From the IMG/VR virus record IMGVR_UViG_3300044826_000112: a stretch of DNA of 64,000 nt; one strand, 5' to 3'. Source of the stretch: a virus. Below the pieces are notes generated by a model that made no database searches, had not been told where the DNA came from, and saw nothing but the letters and a program-made list of their open reading frames with translations. Position numbers and translations under genes: made by a program. Positions 43,668 to 51,786 of this stretch are shown piece after piece. Every line of letters starts with the position of its first letter. Within the stretch, counting starts at the first letter, position 1.

Positions 43668-45299
43668 TCACTCAGTGTAGGTGAAATCGCCTGTCAGGTA
43701 CTGGTATCCCACGTTCCCGAACACGACCGCATGCATCCAATCGTCCGGCTCATCCGGGTGGTGACGGTACACACGTTTACCTACCATCGTCTCCTCTTCG
43801 AAGACGCTCAGGGCATCTTTCCAGTAGCCTTCGGTCAGCTCCCAGGACGGGCACATGAAACGATCGGCACCAAGACGCCACTTCATCATTACGTTGTCGA
43901 TTGCTTGAGTACGGTCTGCAGCCAGGAATTGGCCGTTAGAGTCCCAACGCAGTCGCTTACCAGCCGACACGTACTGTACCATGATAACCTTATCATGACC
44001 CAGTTCTTTCTGCATCAGCTGACCTTGAAGAACACCGACCCCGCGGTCGGAAGCTACCATGCTGGCGTTCCAGCGACGTGCGATTTCACATACGCTGGCG
44101 ACTTGATCAAGAATGTGGATTCCCTGCATCTTCCGAGACTCCAGCAGGTAGCACTTGCCATTATAGTCGTATCCGAGCACAACTGCGACTGTATATGACT
44201 TCTCACTACCGGTAACCGACCAGTCCACACCAACGACAGTTGTCTGGATGGTTGGCAGGATAGCCTTGCTGACTTCATCAAGCGGCTCACCTTTAGCTAG
44301 TGCCAGGCCGGGCCATTGCTTCCAGGTATCTACGCAGCACTTCAGAGCTTCACTCATGGACAGGGACTTACCTGACAAGTCTGTAGCAAGCCCGAACACT
44401 TCGTTCGCCAGAGTAGCTGGGGTGTACAGACCGCCTTCCTGTGCGGAGATCACTTTGTCATACAGACGCGGCCAACGCTTAGGAACACAGTTAGCACCGA
44501 TAACAAGCTGCGGCAGGTGGAAACCTACGACCTTCTTGATGGTTGGTCTAGTAGATACCCAAGTACCCTTGTTCACGTCGATGAACTTACCGCACTTAAC
44601 GCAAGTAGGGCCATCTGGGTGAGAGCAGATCTTAACGCATGTGTCATAGTCGCCCGGGATGTTCCAATGGTTGCAGTGAGTGCACTTCATGGCCCATTCA
44701 AGTTGGTTACTACGAAGCCAAAGCTGCTCGAGAGTGTTCGAGACTGACTTACTGGTGCCGGCCATAACTTTGAAGCCATGGTCAGAGGCGTTAAGGATTT
44801 CGAAGATTGGTGGTAGGGCATCGAAGGAGATGTCCTGTACTTCGTCTACAGTCAGAAGGTCCGCCATGATACCACGAATACGGTCCGCATCAGATTCAGT
44901 CTGAGCGTAGGACAGGTAAATCGTGGAGCCGTTGGAGAAGCTCTTTTCGTAAACGTTACGGGAAGTACCGGTGGAGCGGAAGTACTTCTTCACCAAAGGG
45001 CTGTCCATGAAGCTATCCAGATAGGCGTTCGAGAAACGCTTGGCCTGAATCTGGAATGGTGCAATGTACAGCGAGTTGAAGTACGGCAACGCAATACTCT
45101 TAGACACCAAGCGGCCACCGAGAGATACGGACTTACCGATCTGACGGCCAGCCTTGAACACCATCAACTCCGGGTCGATGTCATAGATCGCCCGGAAGGG
45201 TTCGTACTGGTCGAATCGTAGCGGATATCCCTTCAGCTCCAGCAGGGATGCTGCTAGCTGTGAGGCCGTGGCGATACGAACGCTTTTCTGTTTAATCAT
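43668..45299 (-). CDS. terL: Terminase large subunit
   Basis: KAGRQIGKS Walker A, LTVDEVQD Walker B, GTSK, GVDW nuclease, PDDWMHA. Confidence 0.9.
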   Translation of the reverse strand: MIKQKSVRIATASQLAASLLELKGYPLRFDQYEPFRAIYDIDPELMVFKAGRQIGKSVSLGGRLVSKSIALPYFNSLYIAPFQIQAKRFSNAYLDSFMDSPLVKKYFRSTGTSRNVYEKSFSNGSTIYLSYAQTESDADRIRGIMADLLTVDEVQDISFDALPPIFEILNASDHGFKVMAGTSKSVSNTLEQLWLRSNQLEWAMKCTHCNHWNIPGDYDTCVKICSHPDGPTCVKCGKFIDVNKGTWVSTRPTIKKVVGFHLPQLVIGANCVPKRWPRLYDKVISAQEGGLYTPATLANEVFGLATDLSGKSLSMSEALKCCVDTWKQWPGLALAKGEPLDEVSKAILPTIQTTVVGVDWSVTGSEKSYTVAVVLGYDYNGKCYLLESRKMQGIHILDQVASVCEIARRWNASMVASDRGVGVLQGQLMQKELGHDKVIMVQYVSAGKRLRWDSNGQFLAADRTQAIDNVMMKWRLGADRFMCPSWELTEGYWKDALSVFEEETMVGKRVYRHHPDEPDDWMHAVVFGNVGYQYLTGDFTYTE

Positions 45300-45479
45300 T
45301 AGGGTTCTCCTTGATTACTGATTATAGTTTAAATCCAGAGATTTCGTTATAGTCATAGCTAAAAATAGATTGGATAAAGTTTCAACATTTTGAAAACCCC
45401 TGGTATAATAACTGTGTAGGCAAGTACGCTACGCTTACACATTTACCGAACCCAAATCATATCTTTTAGGAGAAATGCC

Positions 45480-45860
45480 ATGTCTATTACCTCTACCGTA
45501 GTTAAGATCCAAGGCCAAGCCGATGTAACCCTGCCGCTGGTTCTGACCGCTCAGGAAGTCATCGCCCAGATGACCAGCCAGGATCTGAACGGTATGAACA
45601 ACAGCACTTCCGAGTCCGGCTCCGTGCGTACCATCACCTTCACCAAGCGTACCGGTACCAAGGGCGCCGAGATCACCAGCACCGTGCTGAAGATCGAAGG
45701 CTACTCCGACGTGACCCTGCCGATGGCCCTGACCCTGGAGTCTGCTCGTGAGCAGTACCGCTCCGTGGATCTGTCCGGCTACAACGCCAACGTGACCGAA
45801 GACGGCTCTGTCCGTACTCTGTCCTTCACCAAGCGTACTGGTACCAAAGGTAACGATTAA
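45480..45860 (+). CDS. Tandem di-ubiquitin-like protein precursor (PRTRC protein C-like)
   Basis: Two 62-aa units, each ending FTKRTGTKG, plus an ND tail; heads an E2/JAB/E1 operon. Confidence 0.8.
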   Translation: MSITSTVVKIQGQADVTLPLVLTAQEVIAQMTSQDLNGMNNSTSESGSVRTITFTKRTGTKGAEITSTVLKIEGYSDVTLPMALTLESAREQYRSVDLSGYNANVTEDGSVRTLSFTKRTGTKGND

Positions 45861-45884
45861 GTTACCTCTGGCCGGTGCCAAAAA

Positions 45885-45913
45885 CGGGGAGCCTTCGGGC
45901 TCCCTATTTTTTT
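45885..45913 (+). terminator. Intra-operon terminator after the Ubl gene
   Basis: ggggagcc-ttcg-ggctccct followed by a T-run. Confidence 0.8.
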
Positions 45914-45934
45914 AGTCTCTGCAGAGAGGTTTCT

Positions 45935-47116
45935 ATGTACTTCTGCTATACGAAAGAGTTTGATATTAGCAGAGCAAGAGCTAACGGAGTTCCTCGGATC
46001 AGCAGCGTATCTCTGGCTACCTTCGGCAGCTGGCAGGTATCTCGCACCCCATCCCCAGAGCACTACGGATTCATCAACTCGCCATCACTTGAAGAAGGTC
46101 TTAAAGACTTCCTCAATTATGGCTTTGAGGAACTTCGTAAGGTTGAGTTCACAGACTTAGCCGACGGGGAAGTAGAGAACTTCCAACGGATGATTGCGAT
46201 TGACATCCAGAACATCTGTAAGGAGTTCTTACAACAGTCTGATGATAGCGGTTGTTTTTCAATAATCAACGTGATTCAGACGGCACTGAACGACCTGTAC
46301 GAAAAACTTGGAGTATCCAGCGGGCCATTCATCATCTCACACCCTCCGGTAACTACTGGAGCCCTGCGAGATTTGGTTCGTGGAATTATCTCCAACGCAT
46401 CTACTGGTATGCGTAAGTTCTTTCCTCCGCGTATTGCGTCGGAAACTACCATGCAGACCTGCCGTCCAATGATCAACACGCATCGCTTCGAGAGCTCAGA
46501 AGGATTTCAGCATTCCATCATCAAATCGCTGCGTCATGGCCCTACTTTGGAAGCCTTAGAATATGTCGGTGAAGATGATGTAATCTCGCTGAACGGGTTC
46601 GAAATCGATCTCGATGATACTCCGCTGACTCGCCGATATGTGCGGTTCATCCAGCATTTGGCACATAAATACTCCCCGTATCGCCTGCAGGTTCGCCTGC
46701 ATAGCCAATCCAGGAGTATTCGTATAATGCCACTCATCGAGCAGGATTACATTATCGAGGCAGCGTTCGAACGCTTCCGCGGTCACATCCCTTGTGAGTT
46801 GCCGGAAGATCTTCCTTTAGAAGACAAATTGGTCTTGAGCTTTATGGTCATCTCTCAGATGAACCTAGCTCCGCGGTGGCCAATAACTATCACAGACGCG
46901 GACTACCACGAGTACAACCGTGCTGCTATGGTAGAACGCCTGAGTCGTGTAGGCACTGAGGTTAATCTCACACCTATAGATATGACTCATATCTTCAACC
47001 ACATCATGCCCCATCTGGTGGAGGTAATATGGTCCATAGGCAAGCTGAAATGGACGCACTTGCAATCAACTTCGCTGAACTTCCCGGAATTGGCGACGTT
47101 TACGCAGAACGCATAG
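45935..47116 (+). CDS. Uncharacterised protein in the Ubl operon
   Basis: Start reassigned after the GAGG RBS (MYFCY); no motif recognised. Confidence 0.65.
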   Translation: MYFCYTKEFDISRARANGVPRISSVSLATFGSWQVSRTPSPEHYGFINSPSLEEGLKDFLNYGFEELRKVEFTDLADGEVENFQRMIAIDIQNICKEFLQQSDDSGCFSIINVIQTALNDLYEKLGVSSGPFIISHPPVTTGALRDLVRGIISNASTGMRKFFPPRIASETTMQTCRPMINTHRFESSEGFQHSIIKSLRHGPTLEALEYVGEDDVISLNGFEIDLDDTPLTRRYVRFIQHLAHKYSPYRLQVRLHSQSRSIRIMPLIEQDYIIEAAFERFRGHIPCELPEDLPLEDKLVLSFMVISQMNLAPRWPITITDADYHEYNRAAMVERLSRVGTEVNLTPIDMTHIFNHIMPHLVEVIWSIGKLKWTHLQSTSLNFPELATFTQNA

Positions 47117-47307
47117 GTCAGGCTATCGATGATATGGTCTCTCGCATTGGGGGTATCAACTTCGAGGATCGTGCGTATGTCCATGCGTTATCTATCAATC
47201 ACATCAGACAGCGTCGTAACGTGCAGATCAACCGGGTCATACCGGTAGAGCAGCGTTTGAACTTCCGGGCCTACCGTCCGGTAATGTCTGGCATCGTTTT
47301 CATCTGA
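47050..47307 (+). CDS. Small protein with a helix-hairpin-helix-like motif
   Basis: FAELPGIGDVYAERI; overlaps the end of the upstream ORF. Confidence 0.5.
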   Translation: MDALAINFAELPGIGDVYAERIGQAIDDMVSRIGGINFEDRAYVHALSINHIRQRRNVQINRVIPVEQRLNFRAYRPVMSGIVFI

Positions 47308-47314
47308 GGTATCT

Positions 47315-47992
47315 ATGATCGTAGAACTCAAACCCAACGGGGTCCTCGTGGACAATGGCCTCGGTGGCAAGAAGGTCATTTCATATGAATCCTTCATCGC
47401 CGAAATTGCCAAGATGGCAACTGAAGATACTGCCGCTATGGTGCGTACCTTAGGTCTGCCGGAGGGTGCATATGTGCTGGCTCAGAATGGTCGTGAAGCG
47501 ACTATCGGCATGTACTACCCCTCTCGTCGTGCCACTCTGGACTTCAGCGGTACCAAATTCAAGGACGTCCTGTTGCCCAACGTGGTAATCATGGTCGGCC
47601 TTACCAACTTCGGCGTAGACGGTGACTTTGCCATCCTGGATGGCATTCACTGGTTCTGTACCGATCTCCCTCTGGCGATCATGCCGCGGGTTACTTTCCG
47701 TAGCCTGAATGATCTGCCAGAAGGCCTTGCTGGTCACGTATGGTGCCTGCCGTTCCCCAATATGTATTCGGGGATGGGCTGCTCCATGTGTACTGGCAGC
47801 AACAGCTTCATTAGCCGCTTCCCAGATAACCAACTGGCAGGCATCTCCTCTTACTATAACGATCTGTTCATCGGTAGTCGCTTTAACAACGACTTGGGCC
47901 AGTGGATGATTGAGAATGGCAGAGGCTGGCCTGAATGGTTGCGTGAACTGGCGGCTGCTGAAGAATTTCCCTACAATAGACTGCGGAGTTAA
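47315..47992 (+). CDS. Prokaryotic E2 family D-like conjugating enzyme (PRTRC protein B-like)
   Basis: LPFPNMY..G..MCTGSN (candidate catalytic Cys), FIGSRFNNDL. Confidence 0.7.
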   Translation: MIVELKPNGVLVDNGLGGKKVISYESFIAEIAKMATEDTAAMVRTLGLPEGAYVLAQNGREATIGMYYPSRRATLDFSGTKFKDVLLPNVVIMVGLTNFGVDGDFAILDGIHWFCTDLPLAIMPRVTFRSLNDLPEGLAGHVWCLPFPNMYSGMGCSMCTGSNSFISRFPDNQLAGISSYYNDLFIGSRFNNDLGQWMIENGRGWPEWLRELAAAEEFPYNRLRS

Positions 47993-47997
47993 GTCTG

Positions 47998-49368
47998 ATG
48001 ATCAATATCACTCTGTTCGAATCCCTGGTAACCGAGCGTGACTTCCTGGATAAGAAGTTCCCGGACCATCACAACGTGATCAACGTACTGGCAAACGATG
48101 GCAAGCTCTACCGCTACCATCGCTATGCCGGTGAGCGTGAGCTCCTGACGAAGATCGCCGAAACCCCCATCCGTTTCGTCGATAAGACTCAGCTCGTAGA
48201 GCGTCGTCAAATCGTGCCGGGCGGAGTGCGTGTTCCGATGCAGCTGTTGAAAGACATCGAGAACTTCTTCCGTGCCTTCATGATCAAGAACGTGACCTCC
48301 GCTGCCGGGTATCGCCCGGGCCACGGTGACTACGAGGCTATGGCCTTGATCCTGTACAACCTGGATACACAGCAGTATCGCGTATCCATCCCTACCCAGA
48401 AAGTCTCCAAAGCATCTGTGTCCTATGACATCGATGACAAGGCTGACAACGAGATCGTGGTAGTGGATATCCACAGCCACAACTCTATGGGTGCCTTCTT
48501 CTCCGGTGTGGATGATCGTGATGATCGCTCCGGTGCTTGGGTGACGGGCGTACTGGGTAAATTGGATCAGCCAGAGTTCGCCTCGGTATGGCGTTTCAAC
48601 GCCGGTGCTACCAAGGTTCAGCTGACCATCGCTGACATCTTCGAAACCCCGACCATCACCGCTAACCCGGTTGATCAGGCCTGGATGGACAAGGTGCAAG
48701 TAGGCTACTCCAGCTACGGTGGTACTCCGTACTACCAGCGTCCGGTAGGCGGTGCCCAAGTGGGTAACTCCAAAGTAGGGGGTGCCCAGGTGGGAAACCA
48801 CAACTTTCAATCCGAAGCCAAAAGCCCCCGCATCTACGGTGCTGAGGTTGGAGGACTTGGTGGGGGAAAATCACAAGGGGGGTTCGGAAAAAACCCAGCT
48901 GGATTCCCCGTTGAAAGTGACTTCTTCGACCAAGAAGCCTACGAAGAACTCATGGACATGCTGGGTGTCGACGGCTTGGGCTCACGCCTGGACTTGGATG
49001 ACGACATCCCTTTCGAGGAGGACGAAGTAGTTGGTGAGGCCGATGCTTCTCTCGTCCGTCAAATTGACAAACTTCTCGGCCGAATCGAAAACGAGCACGC
49101 CTATGGGCTCGTAGTGGAGAACATCGTTCAGTACGTGACCGATGAAGCTGTCCTGGTGGATATGGCGGGAGAAGTAGTAGACCGCATCACCGATGGCATC
49201 CCGGATCTGACTGAGCGTGGTATCTACGTCATCACCGATCCTGAGCAAGTAGTAGATGCTATGGCCGACATGTGCGGCGAGTATCTGCATGCTGATCAAA
49301 TTGCTACTGCGTTCAATGAGATCTCAGAAGCTCAGGGTGTCCTCTACACATACACTCCCAAGGAGTAA
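47998..49368 (+). CDS. JAB/JAMM metalloprotease (PRTRC protein A-like) with acidic C-terminal extension
   Basis: EAMALI...PTQKVS...DIHSHNSMGAFFSGVDDRDD (E...HxH-x7-S-x2-D). Confidence 0.88.
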   Translation: MINITLFESLVTERDFLDKKFPDHHNVINVLANDGKLYRYHRYAGERELLTKIAETPIRFVDKTQLVERRQIVPGGVRVPMQLLKDIENFFRAFMIKNVTSAAGYRPGHGDYEAMALILYNLDTQQYRVSIPTQKVSKASVSYDIDDKADNEIVVVDIHSHNSMGAFFSGVDDRDDRSGAWVTGVLGKLDQPEFASVWRFNAGATKVQLTIADIFETPTITANPVDQAWMDKVQVGYSSYGGTPYYQRPVGGAQVGNSKVGGAQVGNHNFQSEAKSPRIYGAEVGGLGGGKSQGGFGKNPAGFPVESDFFDQEAYEELMDMLGVDGLGSRLDLDDDIPFEEDEVVGEADASLVRQIDKLLGRIENEHAYGLVVENIVQYVTDEAVLVDMAGEVVDRITDGIPDLTERGIYVITDPEQVVDAMADMCGEYLHADQIATAFNEISEAQGVLYTYTPKE

Positions 49369-49371
49369 AAG

Positions 49372-50514
49372 ATGTTTCACACTCGATTCAACCGGATTGT
49401 GTCGAATGTGATCATCGTAGGTTGCGGCGGGACTGGTTCCCGCCTCATTCCTATGGTGGCACAGTTCATGAAAAGCTGCCCGGCTATCCTCGATCCGTTC
49501 ATCACCCTGATCGACGGGGATACAGTGGAGATGAAGAATCTGGCTCGTCAGAACTTCATCAAGCCGGATATCGGCCGTCACAAGTCCGAAGTGCTGGCGG
49601 AGCGTTATGGCGGGGCTATCGAAATCCCCATCGTATCTATCCCGGAATACTACCAGTACTCCAAGTACAAGGACTTCCGCGGCTGGCTGCAGAACCACTA
49701 CTCGAAGCTGGATCCGAACCTGGCCAACCGTTCTGTCGGTAGCCCGATCGTCTTCTTCGCAGTGGACTCTATGCAGGCACGGATGGAGATCTTAGCAGGC
49801 ATCATGTACTCTCGCTTCCGCAACCACACCTGGGCGTCTGTGATGCCCATCATCGTGGATGCCGGTAACGAGAATACCTTCGGCCAGGTTAGCGTGTATC
49901 ACGCGGCTGTCGTACCTGATGATTCCCACTACCTCCATCATCGCCATGTAGAAGAGTTCATTCGCAGCTTCAACTCTCTGAGCACCATCAAGAAGGGCTA
50001 TGTTGGCGGCGATCTCAACTTCCCACTGCGTCCTGCTCCGGTAGACATGCTGGTATCTGCCCTGGAGAACCCCTCCGAGGCTGACGTATCGTGTGCCGAC
50101 TTGGATCAGACTGCTGCGATCAACGCTCAGATGGCTGTAGGTATGTTCACTGCATTCCAGAACATCTGTCTGAACCACAAGATGACGATTCTGACTTCCT
50201 ACTTCGATATTCATAATGGCAACAGTCAGACGAAGATCGATGATTGGCTGCTGAATCTGCCGGAAGAGGATCCCTCTAAAGGTGCTCGGGTGACCGCTGA
50301 GCGTATCGCCAAGGCATTGAAGAAGGCCCGTGATGTGAAGACTTTGGATAATGATTCTTCTGAGATGTGCCGCCTCCTGGCGTCAGGCACGGTCGATATG
50401 GATATGACCATTATCCGTGATGCCCGTCAGGTAGCCCAAGCGGCTATCAAAGATGGATCTATCTCCAAGCGTAACTTGGAGTTGGAAGCTCTGCTTAACG
50501 GCAGGGCAGCATAA
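49372..50514 (+). CDS. ThiF/E1-like ubiquitin-activating enzyme
   Basis: IIVGCGGTGS, IDGDTVEMKNLARQNF, K..VLAERY, DAGN, SCADL (candidate catalytic Cys). Confidence 0.92.
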   Translation: MFHTRFNRIVSNVIIVGCGGTGSRLIPMVAQFMKSCPAILDPFITLIDGDTVEMKNLARQNFIKPDIGRHKSEVLAERYGGAIEIPIVSIPEYYQYSKYKDFRGWLQNHYSKLDPNLANRSVGSPIVFFAVDSMQARMEILAGIMYSRFRNHTWASVMPIIVDAGNENTFGQVSVYHAAVVPDDSHYLHHRHVEEFIRSFNSLSTIKKGYVGGDLNFPLRPAPVDMLVSALENPSEADVSCADLDQTAAINAQMAVGMFTAFQNICLNHKMTILTSYFDIHNGNSQTKIDDWLLNLPEEDPSKGARVTAERIAKALKKARDVKTLDNDSSEMCRLLASGTVDMDMTIIRDARQVAQAAIKDGSISKRNLELEALLNGRAA

Positions 50515-50540
50515 GAAAAGGGCCCATTGGGCCCTTTTTT
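50515..50540. terminator. Bidirectional terminator
   Basis: aaaagggccc-att-gggccctttttt between convergent genes. Confidence 0.75.
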
Positions 50541-51786
50541 AGCTAGACTCGAGGTCCGTTCTACGTTCACGAGAGGAGACGTCAGGAGTATCCGTAATGG
50601 AGAATACTGCCGCTTCCAAACCGTGAGTATCGAACATAGTCAGAGTACCTGCACGCTTATCCCAGCTCCAAGAGCCCATAGCTTCGGCGTGAATATCCAT
50701 GATCATGTCGATGACGTTAGATGGTACACCTTCAATACCTGCCAGAAGAGTCTTCAGCTCGTTTTGATCACTAGACATATGACCATGTACGCCTTCGATG
50801 GCGGACATAACGCCGGAGATCTGGCTACCAGTGCTCGCCATAACAGCCGATGCTTGATCTTGAACTACCTGATTGGTGTTAGTGAAACGAGAATTTACGT
50901 TATCGAAAAGCCCATTCATGCTGCTTTGCATGCTGGAAATGTGAGAGTGTACACCATTGAACTGGGTATCAGACACATCCTTTACAGCGTCCACTTGGGC
51001 AATTACCAGGTCTACTTTGGCACCCACAGTTTGACTGGTGGAAGTCACGTTAGTGTCTACCGCAGTAACCTGCAGAGCAATAGCATCCAGCTTATCCAGA
51101 ATATCCAGAATAGGAGACATGTCTACTGTGCCACCGCCGCAACCGCATCCACCACCATCTCCACTACCCTCGTAGTTATCAGGCACGAAGAACTTGAACA
51201 CCTGTTTGGATTCGATCAGCTGAACACCCATAGAGGTATAGGTGAAGGTGTGCCCGCAGATTACGCGGATCTTCAGGAAGGTGTCGATAGGCTGCTCTTC
51301 AATCACATGTACGTGGTTGAGCGTTAAGTCCCAAGGACGAGTATCGGAGTAGATCTCGCTGTTATGGTTGACCATAACGTGAGTATCCGGGTATGGCTTA
51401 GGGTTGTTCTCGTCGTCGATCACACCATCAGCACGGTATAGGACAAGCTCCCGGGAGCCACTGCCAGTGCGTGTGTTGTAGTGCATGTCGGTGAAGACTA
51501 CTGGAGAGTCCAGCAGCCAGCCGCGGTGGTAAATAACGCCGAAAAAGCAGGTGTCGTAACCGCCTTCGATCTCCCAGTTAATCTGCACGGTGTGCAGGTC
51601 GGTGTAGAAATCGGCCGGAATCCCATTGCCAAAGTTAGGGGTGTACTGAGAGACTGTTACACCTCGCTGGTACAGTTCGATCGTTGGCGGTTGGGAGATA
51701 TCCAACGGCAGGATCATCTTGTACACCATCGCTTTGTAGTTAGCCACGTCGCCGTGAACGATGGGGTTAGATGCAATTAGCTTCAT
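50539..51786 (-). CDS. Putative virion protein with a coiled-coil region
   Basis: Late-strand ORF; Gly linker followed by a heptad-like region. Confidence 0.6.
   Translation of the reverse strand: MKLIASNPIVHGDVANYKAMVYKMILPLDISQPPTIELYQRGVTVSQYTPNFGNGIPADFYTDLHTVQINWEIEGGYDTCFFGVIYHRGWLLDSPVVFTDMHYNTRTGSGSRELVLYRADGVIDDENNPKPYPDTHVMVNHNSEIYSDTRPWDLTLNHVHVIEEQPIDTFLKIRVICGHTFTYTSMGVQLIESKQVFKFFVPDNYEGSGDGGGCGCGGGTVDMSPILDILDKLDAIALQVTAVDTNVTSTSQTVGAKVDLVIAQVDAVKDVSDTQFNGVHSHISSMQSSMNGLFDNVNSRFTNTNQVVQDQASAVMASTGSQISGVMSAIEGVHGHMSSDQNELKTLLAGIEGVPSNVIDMIMDIHAEAMGSWSWDKRAGTLTMFDTHGLEAAVFSITDTPDVSSRERRTDLESS

Follow-up and report, generated by a model that had tools for sequence, protein, structure and literature searches.

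A putative polyubiquitin-type precursor of a ubiquitin-like tag, encoded beside the terminase gene in a clade of large phages

The window, a 64,000-nt stretch of IMG/VR record IMGVR_UViG_3300044826_000112, comes from an uncultured phage of 175,261 bp that is 98% complete. Its plus strand carries a cassette in the order Ubl-X-Z-E2-JAB-E1, in which Ubl denotes a ubiquitin-like protein. The gene for the large terminase subunit (TerL; 43668–45299, minus strand), identified by Pfam GpA_ATPase/Terminase_6N matches on an orthologue, is divergent from the cassette, and ORFs of 186, 99 and 1104 aa also lie upstream on the minus strand. At 45382–45409 on the plus strand there is a promoter-like site (TCAACA, 16 nt, TATAAT, with TG before the −10, i.e. 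an extended −10) that scored 10/12 in a consensus scan and is a motif match only. A Shine-Dalgarno sequence, AGGAG, is readable in the sequence at 45468–45472 (plus strand), 7 nt 5′ of the ATG of the Ubl gene. Directly 3′ of that gene is an intrinsic-terminator-like hairpin with an 8-bp stem containing 6 GC pairs, followed by ATTTTTTT (45886–45914, plus strand). The remaining ORFs of the cassette, all on the plus strand, are X (393 aa, 45935–47116), the small ORF Z (about 85–92 aa, 47029–47307), which overlaps the end of X, a 225-aa E2-like protein termed Y (47315–47992), a JAB/JAMM metallopeptidase of 456 aa (47998–49368) and an E1-like adenylating enzyme of the ThiF family with 380 aa (49372–50514).

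The Ubl ORF (45480–45860, plus strand) has 126 codons that divide into 62 + 62 + ND. Unit 1 (residues 1–62, 45480–45665, plus strand) and unit 2 (residues 63–124, 45666–45851, plus strand) were recognised by the unit HMM with domain E-values of 4.7e-29 and 2.1e-27, respectively; both end in KRTGTKG, and translation places the Asn-Asp cap and the stop codon at 45852–45860 (plus strand). An earlier note on this DNA had described the protein as exactly 62 + 62 + 2 aa, with FTKRTGTKG closing both units and ND after the second, and the translation bears this out. The note had also counted 36 identical residues between units that align without gaps, and BLASTP gave the same picture, a gapless alignment with 36 identities over 60 aligned columns (E 2e-25, single comparison); in alignment A2 the two units are 58% identical. 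The DNA of the units is only 62% identical (116/186), with a pS of 0.45, indicating that the units did not duplicate recently. The layout of two units plus ND recurs in five close relatives from other samples (78–99% identical) and is therefore no assembly artefact. Across these five the ND cap has four synonymous and no non-synonymous differences.

The window Ubl has no match to PF14454 (Prok_Ub) and scores 13.8 bits against TIGR03738 (PRTRC_C), below the cutoff of 45.95. Thus, by curated cutoff, it is a distant branch and no member of either family. Searches of the window Ubl, X and Y against Pfam, PHROGs and PADLOC gave no usable match; a Reprolysin_4 match on the Ubl (E 0.0064, below cutoff) was taken as chance. 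Among 28 units of the wider family, five match PF14454 (best 4e-6) and six match TIGR03738 (best 3.1e-7). The last position of the PRTRC_C model aligns with the unit Gly (Gly62).

The hairpin behind the Ubl gene is conserved. A hairpin plus T-run of −8 kcal/mol or lower is found there in 31 of 34 non-identical loci, as compared with 26 of 460 random 100-nt windows from the same loci, and the hairpin reaches −14 kcal/mol in 25 of the 34 loci versus 5 of the 460 control windows. This suggests, as an inference, that more tag than enzyme is produced. The operon is covered by RNA-library contigs from three studies of wastewater or aquatic samples, and in one run the Ubl contig has a depth of 30 versus at most 3.8 elsewhere. 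These depths are not evidence of expression, since contigs do not allow expression to be ranked and the libraries may contain DNA.

Related loci were collected with an alignment of E1 homologues (A3), which retrieved 79 IMG/VR loci; the alignment was needed, as the same kind of search with the single E1 protein found nothing. The unit HMM placed the Ubl gene in 46 ORFs located 3–4.5 kb upstream of E1 on the same strand, and a profile search of 1.84 billion proteins returned 41 Ubl matches. The pooled set contains 68 non-identical Ubl proteins, of which 37, 19, 8, 2 and 2 have one, two, three, four and five units, respectively. The earlier note had proposed a comparison of Ubl copy number in homologous loci, and the range of one to five is what a precursor model predicts. 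Forty-three of the 68 proteins end exactly at the Gly. The other 25 are capped, by 1–5 residues in 23 cases (the caps seen being A, ND, C, K, L, I, V, ALA, ILA, ALLAA and INYSK) and by longer tails of 17 and 23 aa in two. Single-copy proteins mostly stop right after the Gly (30/37). The criterion that the mature length be set by single-copy homologues is thereby met, as is the criterion of head-to-tail units each ending in the residue to be activated, both units of the window ending in KRTGTKG. The mature end is set independently by the single-copy proteins and by the end of the PRTRC_C model.

The unit tails are highly conserved throughout the family. G(−3), K(−1) and G(0) never vary among the 117 units, and 115 of these have F(−8). 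Because units were delimited by the tail pattern, G(0) and a basic residue at −1 are given in advance, but the invariance of Lys and of G(−3) is not. The family tail can be written F-x-x-[RK]-T-G-[TN]-K-G, with G-x-K-G in every functional unit, internal or terminal, and the 31 tandem homologues carry the same kind of tail on all of their tailed units. Ala is the commonest residue after an internal Gly (25 of 49 junctions). Some homologues have acidic spacers of up to about 60 aa between units, and the upstream units still end in TGTKG. The 263-aa protein of Vibrio phage D69, for example, has three units, each ending in TGTKG, spacers of 21 aa and about 55 aa and an INYSK cap. Tail-less units also occur (P0136/L010 and P0138); these have decayed into linker and are embedded in acidic spacers. 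Near-identical tags are present in one copy in locus L006 and in two copies in L009, with the same enzymes, which fits a role in dosage better than a fixed two-domain architecture.

An AF2 model of the di-Ubl was obtained from a 17-row alignment (pLDDT 77, pTM 0.42). Each unit is modelled as β-β-α-β-β followed by a flexible tail (E5–10, E16–18, H24–30, E39–46 and E49–56), so that in the model both units satisfy the criterion for a β-grasp fold, a core with a flexible C-terminal tail. The low pTM indicates that the predicted protein consists of two independent β-grasp beads without fixed packing between units. Foldseek ranks linear di-ubiquitin, ISG15 and polyubiquitin as the top PDB matches of the model (E 7e-4, probability 0.98–1.0). 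The earlier note had pointed out that the central helix differs between the units (AQEVIAQMTS versus LESAREQYRS), and these segments do differ and fall on the predicted helices H24–30 and H86–92.

The match to ISG15 (7s6p, probability 1.0) raises the question of whether the two units stay joined, with only ND removed, the 124-residue di-domain conjugated as a whole and the internal TGTKG being a relic linker. Such a design has precedents in the Bil and Bub Ubls, which contain two to three β-grasp domains and act whole (PMC11601596, PMC11601603), and the two window units have diverged and are separately conserved, like the two domains of ISG15. The family data argue otherwise. The internal tail equals the terminal tail in conservation, both over the 49 junctions and in old duplicates. 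Relatives that share the same enzymes differ in copy number, with switches among 1, 2, 3 and 5 (L006 versus L009 being one case), upstream units end in TGTKG in front of spacers of up to about 60 aa, and the AF2 pTM of 0.42 gives no fixed unit packing. A conjugated di-domain is thus quite improbable in our judgement.

Selection on the tails was compared in the five close relatives. The internal and terminal tails have pN/pS values of 0.20 and 0.21, respectively, as against 0.43 and 0.34 for the unit cores; these figures come from no more than five close sequences, with nine codons in each tail. By this measure the internal tail is as constrained as the terminal tail in close relatives, and it is also invariant in old duplicates. 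A quick IQ-TREE phylogeny of the units, based on 61 columns and of low resolution, groups unit 2 of the window with unit 2 of four relatives (SH-aLRT 98). In the window lineage, unit 1 and unit 2 are sister clades, and five genomes retain each of them; within the Vibrio-phage clade, units group by position (first, second and last). For at least 14 proteins, the units cluster within their own protein, implying repeated independent duplication or concerted evolution. The earlier note had considered that the window might encode two functionally distinct tags. The separate conservation of units 1 and 2 in five relatives is compatible with this reading and does no more; it does not imply that the functions differ, and the question remains open.

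The enzymes of the cassette were assigned from profiles, invariant residues and models. The JAB protease that the earlier note had placed in the operon was recognised by Prok-JAB PF14464 (29.7 bits versus a 25-bit cutoff) and contains an N-terminal domain and an acidic C-terminal region. It meets the JAMM motif E...HxH-x7-S-xx-D, with E113, H159, S160, H161, S169 and D172 invariant in 14 homologues, and matches TIGR03735 (PRTRC_A) at 1.4e-18, below cutoff. The E1-like protein matches PF00899 (44.1 bits versus a cutoff of 28.1), with a single ThiF match in the Pfam scan at residues 11–182, and TIGR03736 (PRTRC_ThiF) at 7e-16, again below cutoff; its profile matches the NEDD8, UBA7 and UBA1 E1 structures. 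The nucleotide loop GxGGxG (G17, G19 and G20) is invariant, as is Cys241 in the motif SCADL[DE]Q[TS]; a catalytic role of Cys241 is inferred only.

Protein Y appears to be a relative of Prok-E2_D/PRTRC_B. The consensus of its family in alignment A4 is LPFPNxYxxGxMCYG, giving PFPN-x8-C with Cys159 invariant, and the N-x8-C spacing is that of the HPN-x8-C signature of UBC enzymes. The window protein has a two-residue insertion relative to this spacing. Among Y homologues, 21 of 30 match PF14460 (best 2.7e-10) and 13 of 30 match TIGR03737, and the atlas clusters for Y carry PF14460 and the label 'PRTRC system protein B' (0.95); the window Y itself matches neither PF14460 nor TIGR03737. The AF2 model of Y has a pLDDT of 91. 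In a structural search with VIA-align, E2 enzymes rank first over residues 46–223, with Z-scores of 5.3 to 3.5, and make up the majority of matches to this region. The best match is 5a31_Q (Z 5.3, 115 aa aligned, rmsd 3.6), and all Z-scores are below 8 and hence weak. Foldseek of the same model against the PDB gave nothing below E 0.29.

The positions of X and Z are occupied in the other loci as well, by a gene of 170–390 aa and, in all loci, by an ORF of 80–160 aa, respectively. X has no match in Pfam, NCBIfam, PHROG or PADLOC, 23 homologues searched against NCBIfam/Pfam and in the atlas gave nothing, and jackhmmer linked X only to the X of the Arash group. The protein varies greatly, belongs to an unknown family and could be an adaptor or a substrate. 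Eight Z homologues had no match in Pfam, a scan that leaves out NCBIfam, the home of the PRTRC_D/E/F models; a helix-hairpin-helix reading of Z lacks support from any Pfam model.

The simple form of the E1 also bears on the nature of the reaction. It is of the single-domain ThiF/MoeB type, its NCBIfam matches include the ThiF and MoeB models, and the units are ThiS-sized (62 aa) with a single terminal Gly, so the Ubl could be imagined as a carrier like ThiS or MoaD, its Gly being adenylated and thiocarboxylated or joined to a non-protein acceptor for phage cofactor, nucleotide or DNA modification. The E2-like protein with its invariant Cys (N-x8-C) and the JAMM peptidase mark conjugation rather than sulfur transfer. 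Moreover, the cassette is without a rhodanese, a cysteine desulfurase or a biosynthetic gene, and multi-copy precursors suggest a stoichiometric and not a catalytic use. A carrier function is therefore very improbable.

Taken together, we consider it likely that the 126-aa ORF specifies a phage Ubl tag in the form of a polyubiquitin-type precursor and that this tag follows the complete route proposed below. The narrower statement that the precursor is cut into monomers is held with higher confidence than the full mechanism, and is itself inferred, without biochemical evidence. Internal units have no start codons, so free monomers would need proteolysis. In the proposed mechanism, the Ubl gene would be transcribed from its own promoter, and the terminator behind it would let less transcript through to the enzyme genes. 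The JAB metallopeptidase would cut after Gly62 and Gly124 to release two 62-residue tags, each with a free C-terminal Gly. The ThiF-type E1 would adenylate this Gly and probably take the tag on Cys241, and the tag would then pass to Cys159 of the E2-like protein and on to target lysines, a conjugation that JAB would also reverse. Extra copies would mainly raise the dosage of the tag; in the window lineage the two diverged units may have specialised. The earlier note had arrived at the same precursor interpretation, which is now supported by comparison (copy number, Gly ends, tails and caps) and not by biochemistry.

The assignment of the processing step to JAB remains an inference, and neither cleavage nor conjugation has biochemical or proteomic support in any member of the family. 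All loci retain JAB, even where the Ubl has nothing to trim. The conserved role of JAB must therefore go beyond processing, deconjugation being the simplest option, and its presence alone is no proof of its being the processing enzyme. A complex prediction for JAB(1–235) with the di-Ubl scored 0.01 and carries no weight for or against binding. In a related case, the JAB enzyme BilC of E. aridi cuts its Ubl at Gly97|Ala98 and cleaves a Ubl-GFP fusion (PMC10557695).

The genomic setting of the cassette was examined through TerL. An alignment of TerL (A7) retrieved 80 loci; 38 of them combine a TerL identity of 43% or higher with upstream sequence of about 9 kb or more. In 35 of these 38 relatives the cassette is the divergent neighbour of TerL, and in two it is found elsewhere on the contig; the divergent TerL-Ubl arrangement is kept where TerL is only 44–74% identical. 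One complete related genome of 144 kb is without E1 and the cassette, showing that the module is not essential. For TerL relatives of 34% identity or less, none of the four cassette models was detected within flanks of about 10 kb or less. The cassette is thus a near-core, vertically inherited module of a clade of phages of roughly 150–190 kb.

This fixed place beside TerL favours a role in the phage's own cycle over that of mobile defence cargo. The opposite view would be that of a phage-borne module resembling Bil, which tags competing phages or host defences and has no part in morphogenesis; it concerns only the target and is compatible with the precursor model. The complete relative without the cassette speaks for such an accessory nature. 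Constancy of the TerL-divergent place in 35/38 relatives, with TerL at 44–74% identity, instead fits vertical core genes, and PADLOC gave no defence Ubl match except weak E1 matches. On balance an accessory weapon appears unlikely, though far from negligible. For the targets, phage morphogenesis proteins are the leading guess, because the cassette is fixed beside packaging and structural genes.

A broader hypothesis can be built on this guess. Phages may have independently evolved a true polyubiquitin system, dosage-tunable and processed by JAB, in which the units become position-specific tags and the phage E1 and E2 place them on its own virion or packaging proteins during morphogenesis. Candidates for position-specific tags would be the two units encoded in the window and, for the Vibrio-phage clade, the conserved 'last unit' that follows an acidic spacer. 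We regard this hypothesis as a tentative possibility only. The published virion proteome of Salmonella phage Arash (PMC10585845), which lists Gp246–249 and Gp251 as 'structural', was rejected as evidence for a location in the virion, because the list contains 116 proteins that include RNA polymerase and ribonucleotide reductase subunits and because gp251c is in the wrong frame.

Among known systems, PRTRC provides the nearest curated families for all four core parts of the phage cassette. PRTRC is found mostly on plasmids according to its NCBIfam description, and we know of no experimentally established function for it. Differences are evident: the window proteins either fall short of the curated PRTRC cutoffs or have no match, neither phage X (Pfam and NCBIfam) nor Z (Pfam only) has a ParB or PRTRC_D/E/F match, the phage cassette sits in the packaging region of large phages of lytic type, and the phage Ubl is multi-copy. 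Going by the matches of JAB, E1 and the Ubl units to PRTRC/Prok_Ub models, the cassette is a distant phage branch of the PRTRC/Prok_Ub type with no detectable ParB-like partner.

Eukaryotic polyubiquitin genes encode Gly-ended repeats in varying copy number with a short non-ubiquitin cap. The phage precursors resemble polyubiquitin genes such as yeast UBI4 and human UBB/UBC in their head-to-tail units, Gly ends, variable copies and short cap, and in that units are more alike within a gene than between genes. The phage Ubl shares only the fold with ubiquitin and has no sequence relationship to it, its tail is T-K-G in place of R-G-G, and some members contain long spacers. Polyubiquitin is processed mainly by cysteine DUBs, whereas the presumed processing enzyme of the phages is a JAMM metalloprotease. 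As far as sequence alone can tell, the combination of an activation tail on each unit with single-copy orthologues that define the cut site is polyubiquitin logic proper.

A resemblance to polyubiquitin was pointed out in 2006 for tandem β-grasp Ubls of bacterial operons (PMC1779556). In the operon type 6e/Bub (Iyer, Burroughs and Aravind, 2006; Ye et al., 2024), two to three β-grasp domains occur in tandem. Different from the phage proteins, Bub Ubl2 forms intact monomers and Ubl3 structures show a conserved homodimeric assembly; Bub also works through oxyester intermediates without catalytic cysteines, while the phage family has invariant Cys159 (E2) and Cys241 (E1) and a Gly tail on every unit. 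Tail protein I of lambda/T1, together with gpK (JAB plus NlpC/P60), offers another parallel, a phage Ubl with a conserved C-terminal Gly and an adjacent JAB predicted to release it (PMC1779556). There, however, E1 and E2 are missing and the Ubl is fused to another domain and not repeated.

The operon of Bil (bacterial ISG15-like; BilA–BilD, types I and II) has the same four activities in the same order (Ubl, E2, JAB and E1). Its JAB enzyme cuts a Gly|Ala bond and so trims the Ubl back to its C-terminal Gly (PMC10557695), and one Bil system targets a phage tail protein. The E1 of BilABCD has an inactive and an active adenylation domain and a mobile CYS domain (PMC11601596), an architecture to which the 380-aa phage E1, with its single ThiF match in the Pfam scan, does not conform. 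A multi-domain BilA is one protein, while the phage units each have their own activation tail. Finally, Bil is a bacterial defence operon, in contrast to the near-core phage module with its additional X and Z, which does not meet the criterion of a defence island.

A full-text literature search, in which subscription journals are thinly covered, turned up no publication that deals with tandem Ubl precursors of phages or with what PRTRC does. Bacterial Ubl conjugation has so far been studied as anti-phage defence (CBASS type II, Bil and Bub), whereas here a whole clade of large phages owns an E1-E2-JAB-Ubl kit as a near-core module, and it is the phage tag gene that has the most eukaryote-like feature of ubiquitin, a multi-copy capped precursor. 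If the morphogenesis reading is true, this would be the first Ubl conjugation pathway that serves a phage rather than fighting one; if the phages do have a true polyubiquitin system, its precursor would be the first of this kind outside eukaryotes and their viruses. The natural series of one to five copies, with or without caps and spacers, offers a test of why ubiquitin is encoded as a polyprotein, and the family supplies small (62-aa) tags with a defined protease site.

Culturable members are available for target finding, namely Salmonella phage Arash and Vibrio phages D69, D148 and D181. The Arash Ubl is a single 66-aa unit with a stop codon directly after TGTKG. The deposited annotation calls another frame at this locus, and the finding corrects a wrong-frame annotation in a published phage genome.

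An intrinsic-terminator-like hairpin followed by a T-run lies directly 3′ of the Ubl gene (window 45886–45914). The same arrangement is found at this place in 31 of 34 loci within L001–L070, the related phage loci, compared with ∼6% of random windows. Its retention behind the Ubl gene suggests that most tag transcription ends ahead of the enzyme genes.

The Ubl gene of Salmonella phage Arash (OQ632216; L001:107–307) encodes 66 residues, ends in TGTKG followed directly by the stop codon, and matches the unit HMM with an E-value of 1.6e-31. The deposited CDS at this position, gp251c (L001:102–320, the complement of 180500–180718), was called in a different frame from this conserved gene, and the Arash Ubl is therefore hidden in the OQ632216 record. 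Degenerate Ubl-like pseudo-units that lack TGTKG at their end were observed within the long acidic spacers of two homologues, P0136 (L010:3262–4350) and P0138; such spacers may be remnants of dead Ubl units.

The small ORF Z (window 47029–47307), which overlaps X at its 3′ end, includes the sequence ELPGIG..YAERI. Every related locus has an ORF of 80–160 residues here; eight of these were tested against Pfam and none matched a model, helix-hairpin-helix included. Beyond the cassette, a 415-residue ORF on the minus strand (window 50539–51786) is oriented convergently towards the 3′ end of E1 and carries a GGGCGCGGG run. Most related loci keep fragments of this ORF and its L164 orthologue shows a weak Baculo_PEP_C match; the product is probably a structural protein.

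E1 is not detectable in L115 (IMGVR_UViG_3300013121_000049), a complete phage of 144,252 bp with terminal repeats, indicating that the cassette can be lost; the L115 TerL is 49% identical to that of the window. DNA near-identical to window 45300–50600, with at least about 0.7 of the sampled words shared, is present in public metagenome runs of freshwater and wastewater that stem from several studies, and parts of the operon were also assembled from libraries labelled metatranscriptomic. Long enzyme ORFs occur in single loci, one for E1 (∼1050 residues, L070:7887–11045) and one for JAB (∼860 residues, L022:5321–7906), and may represent fusions with additional domains.
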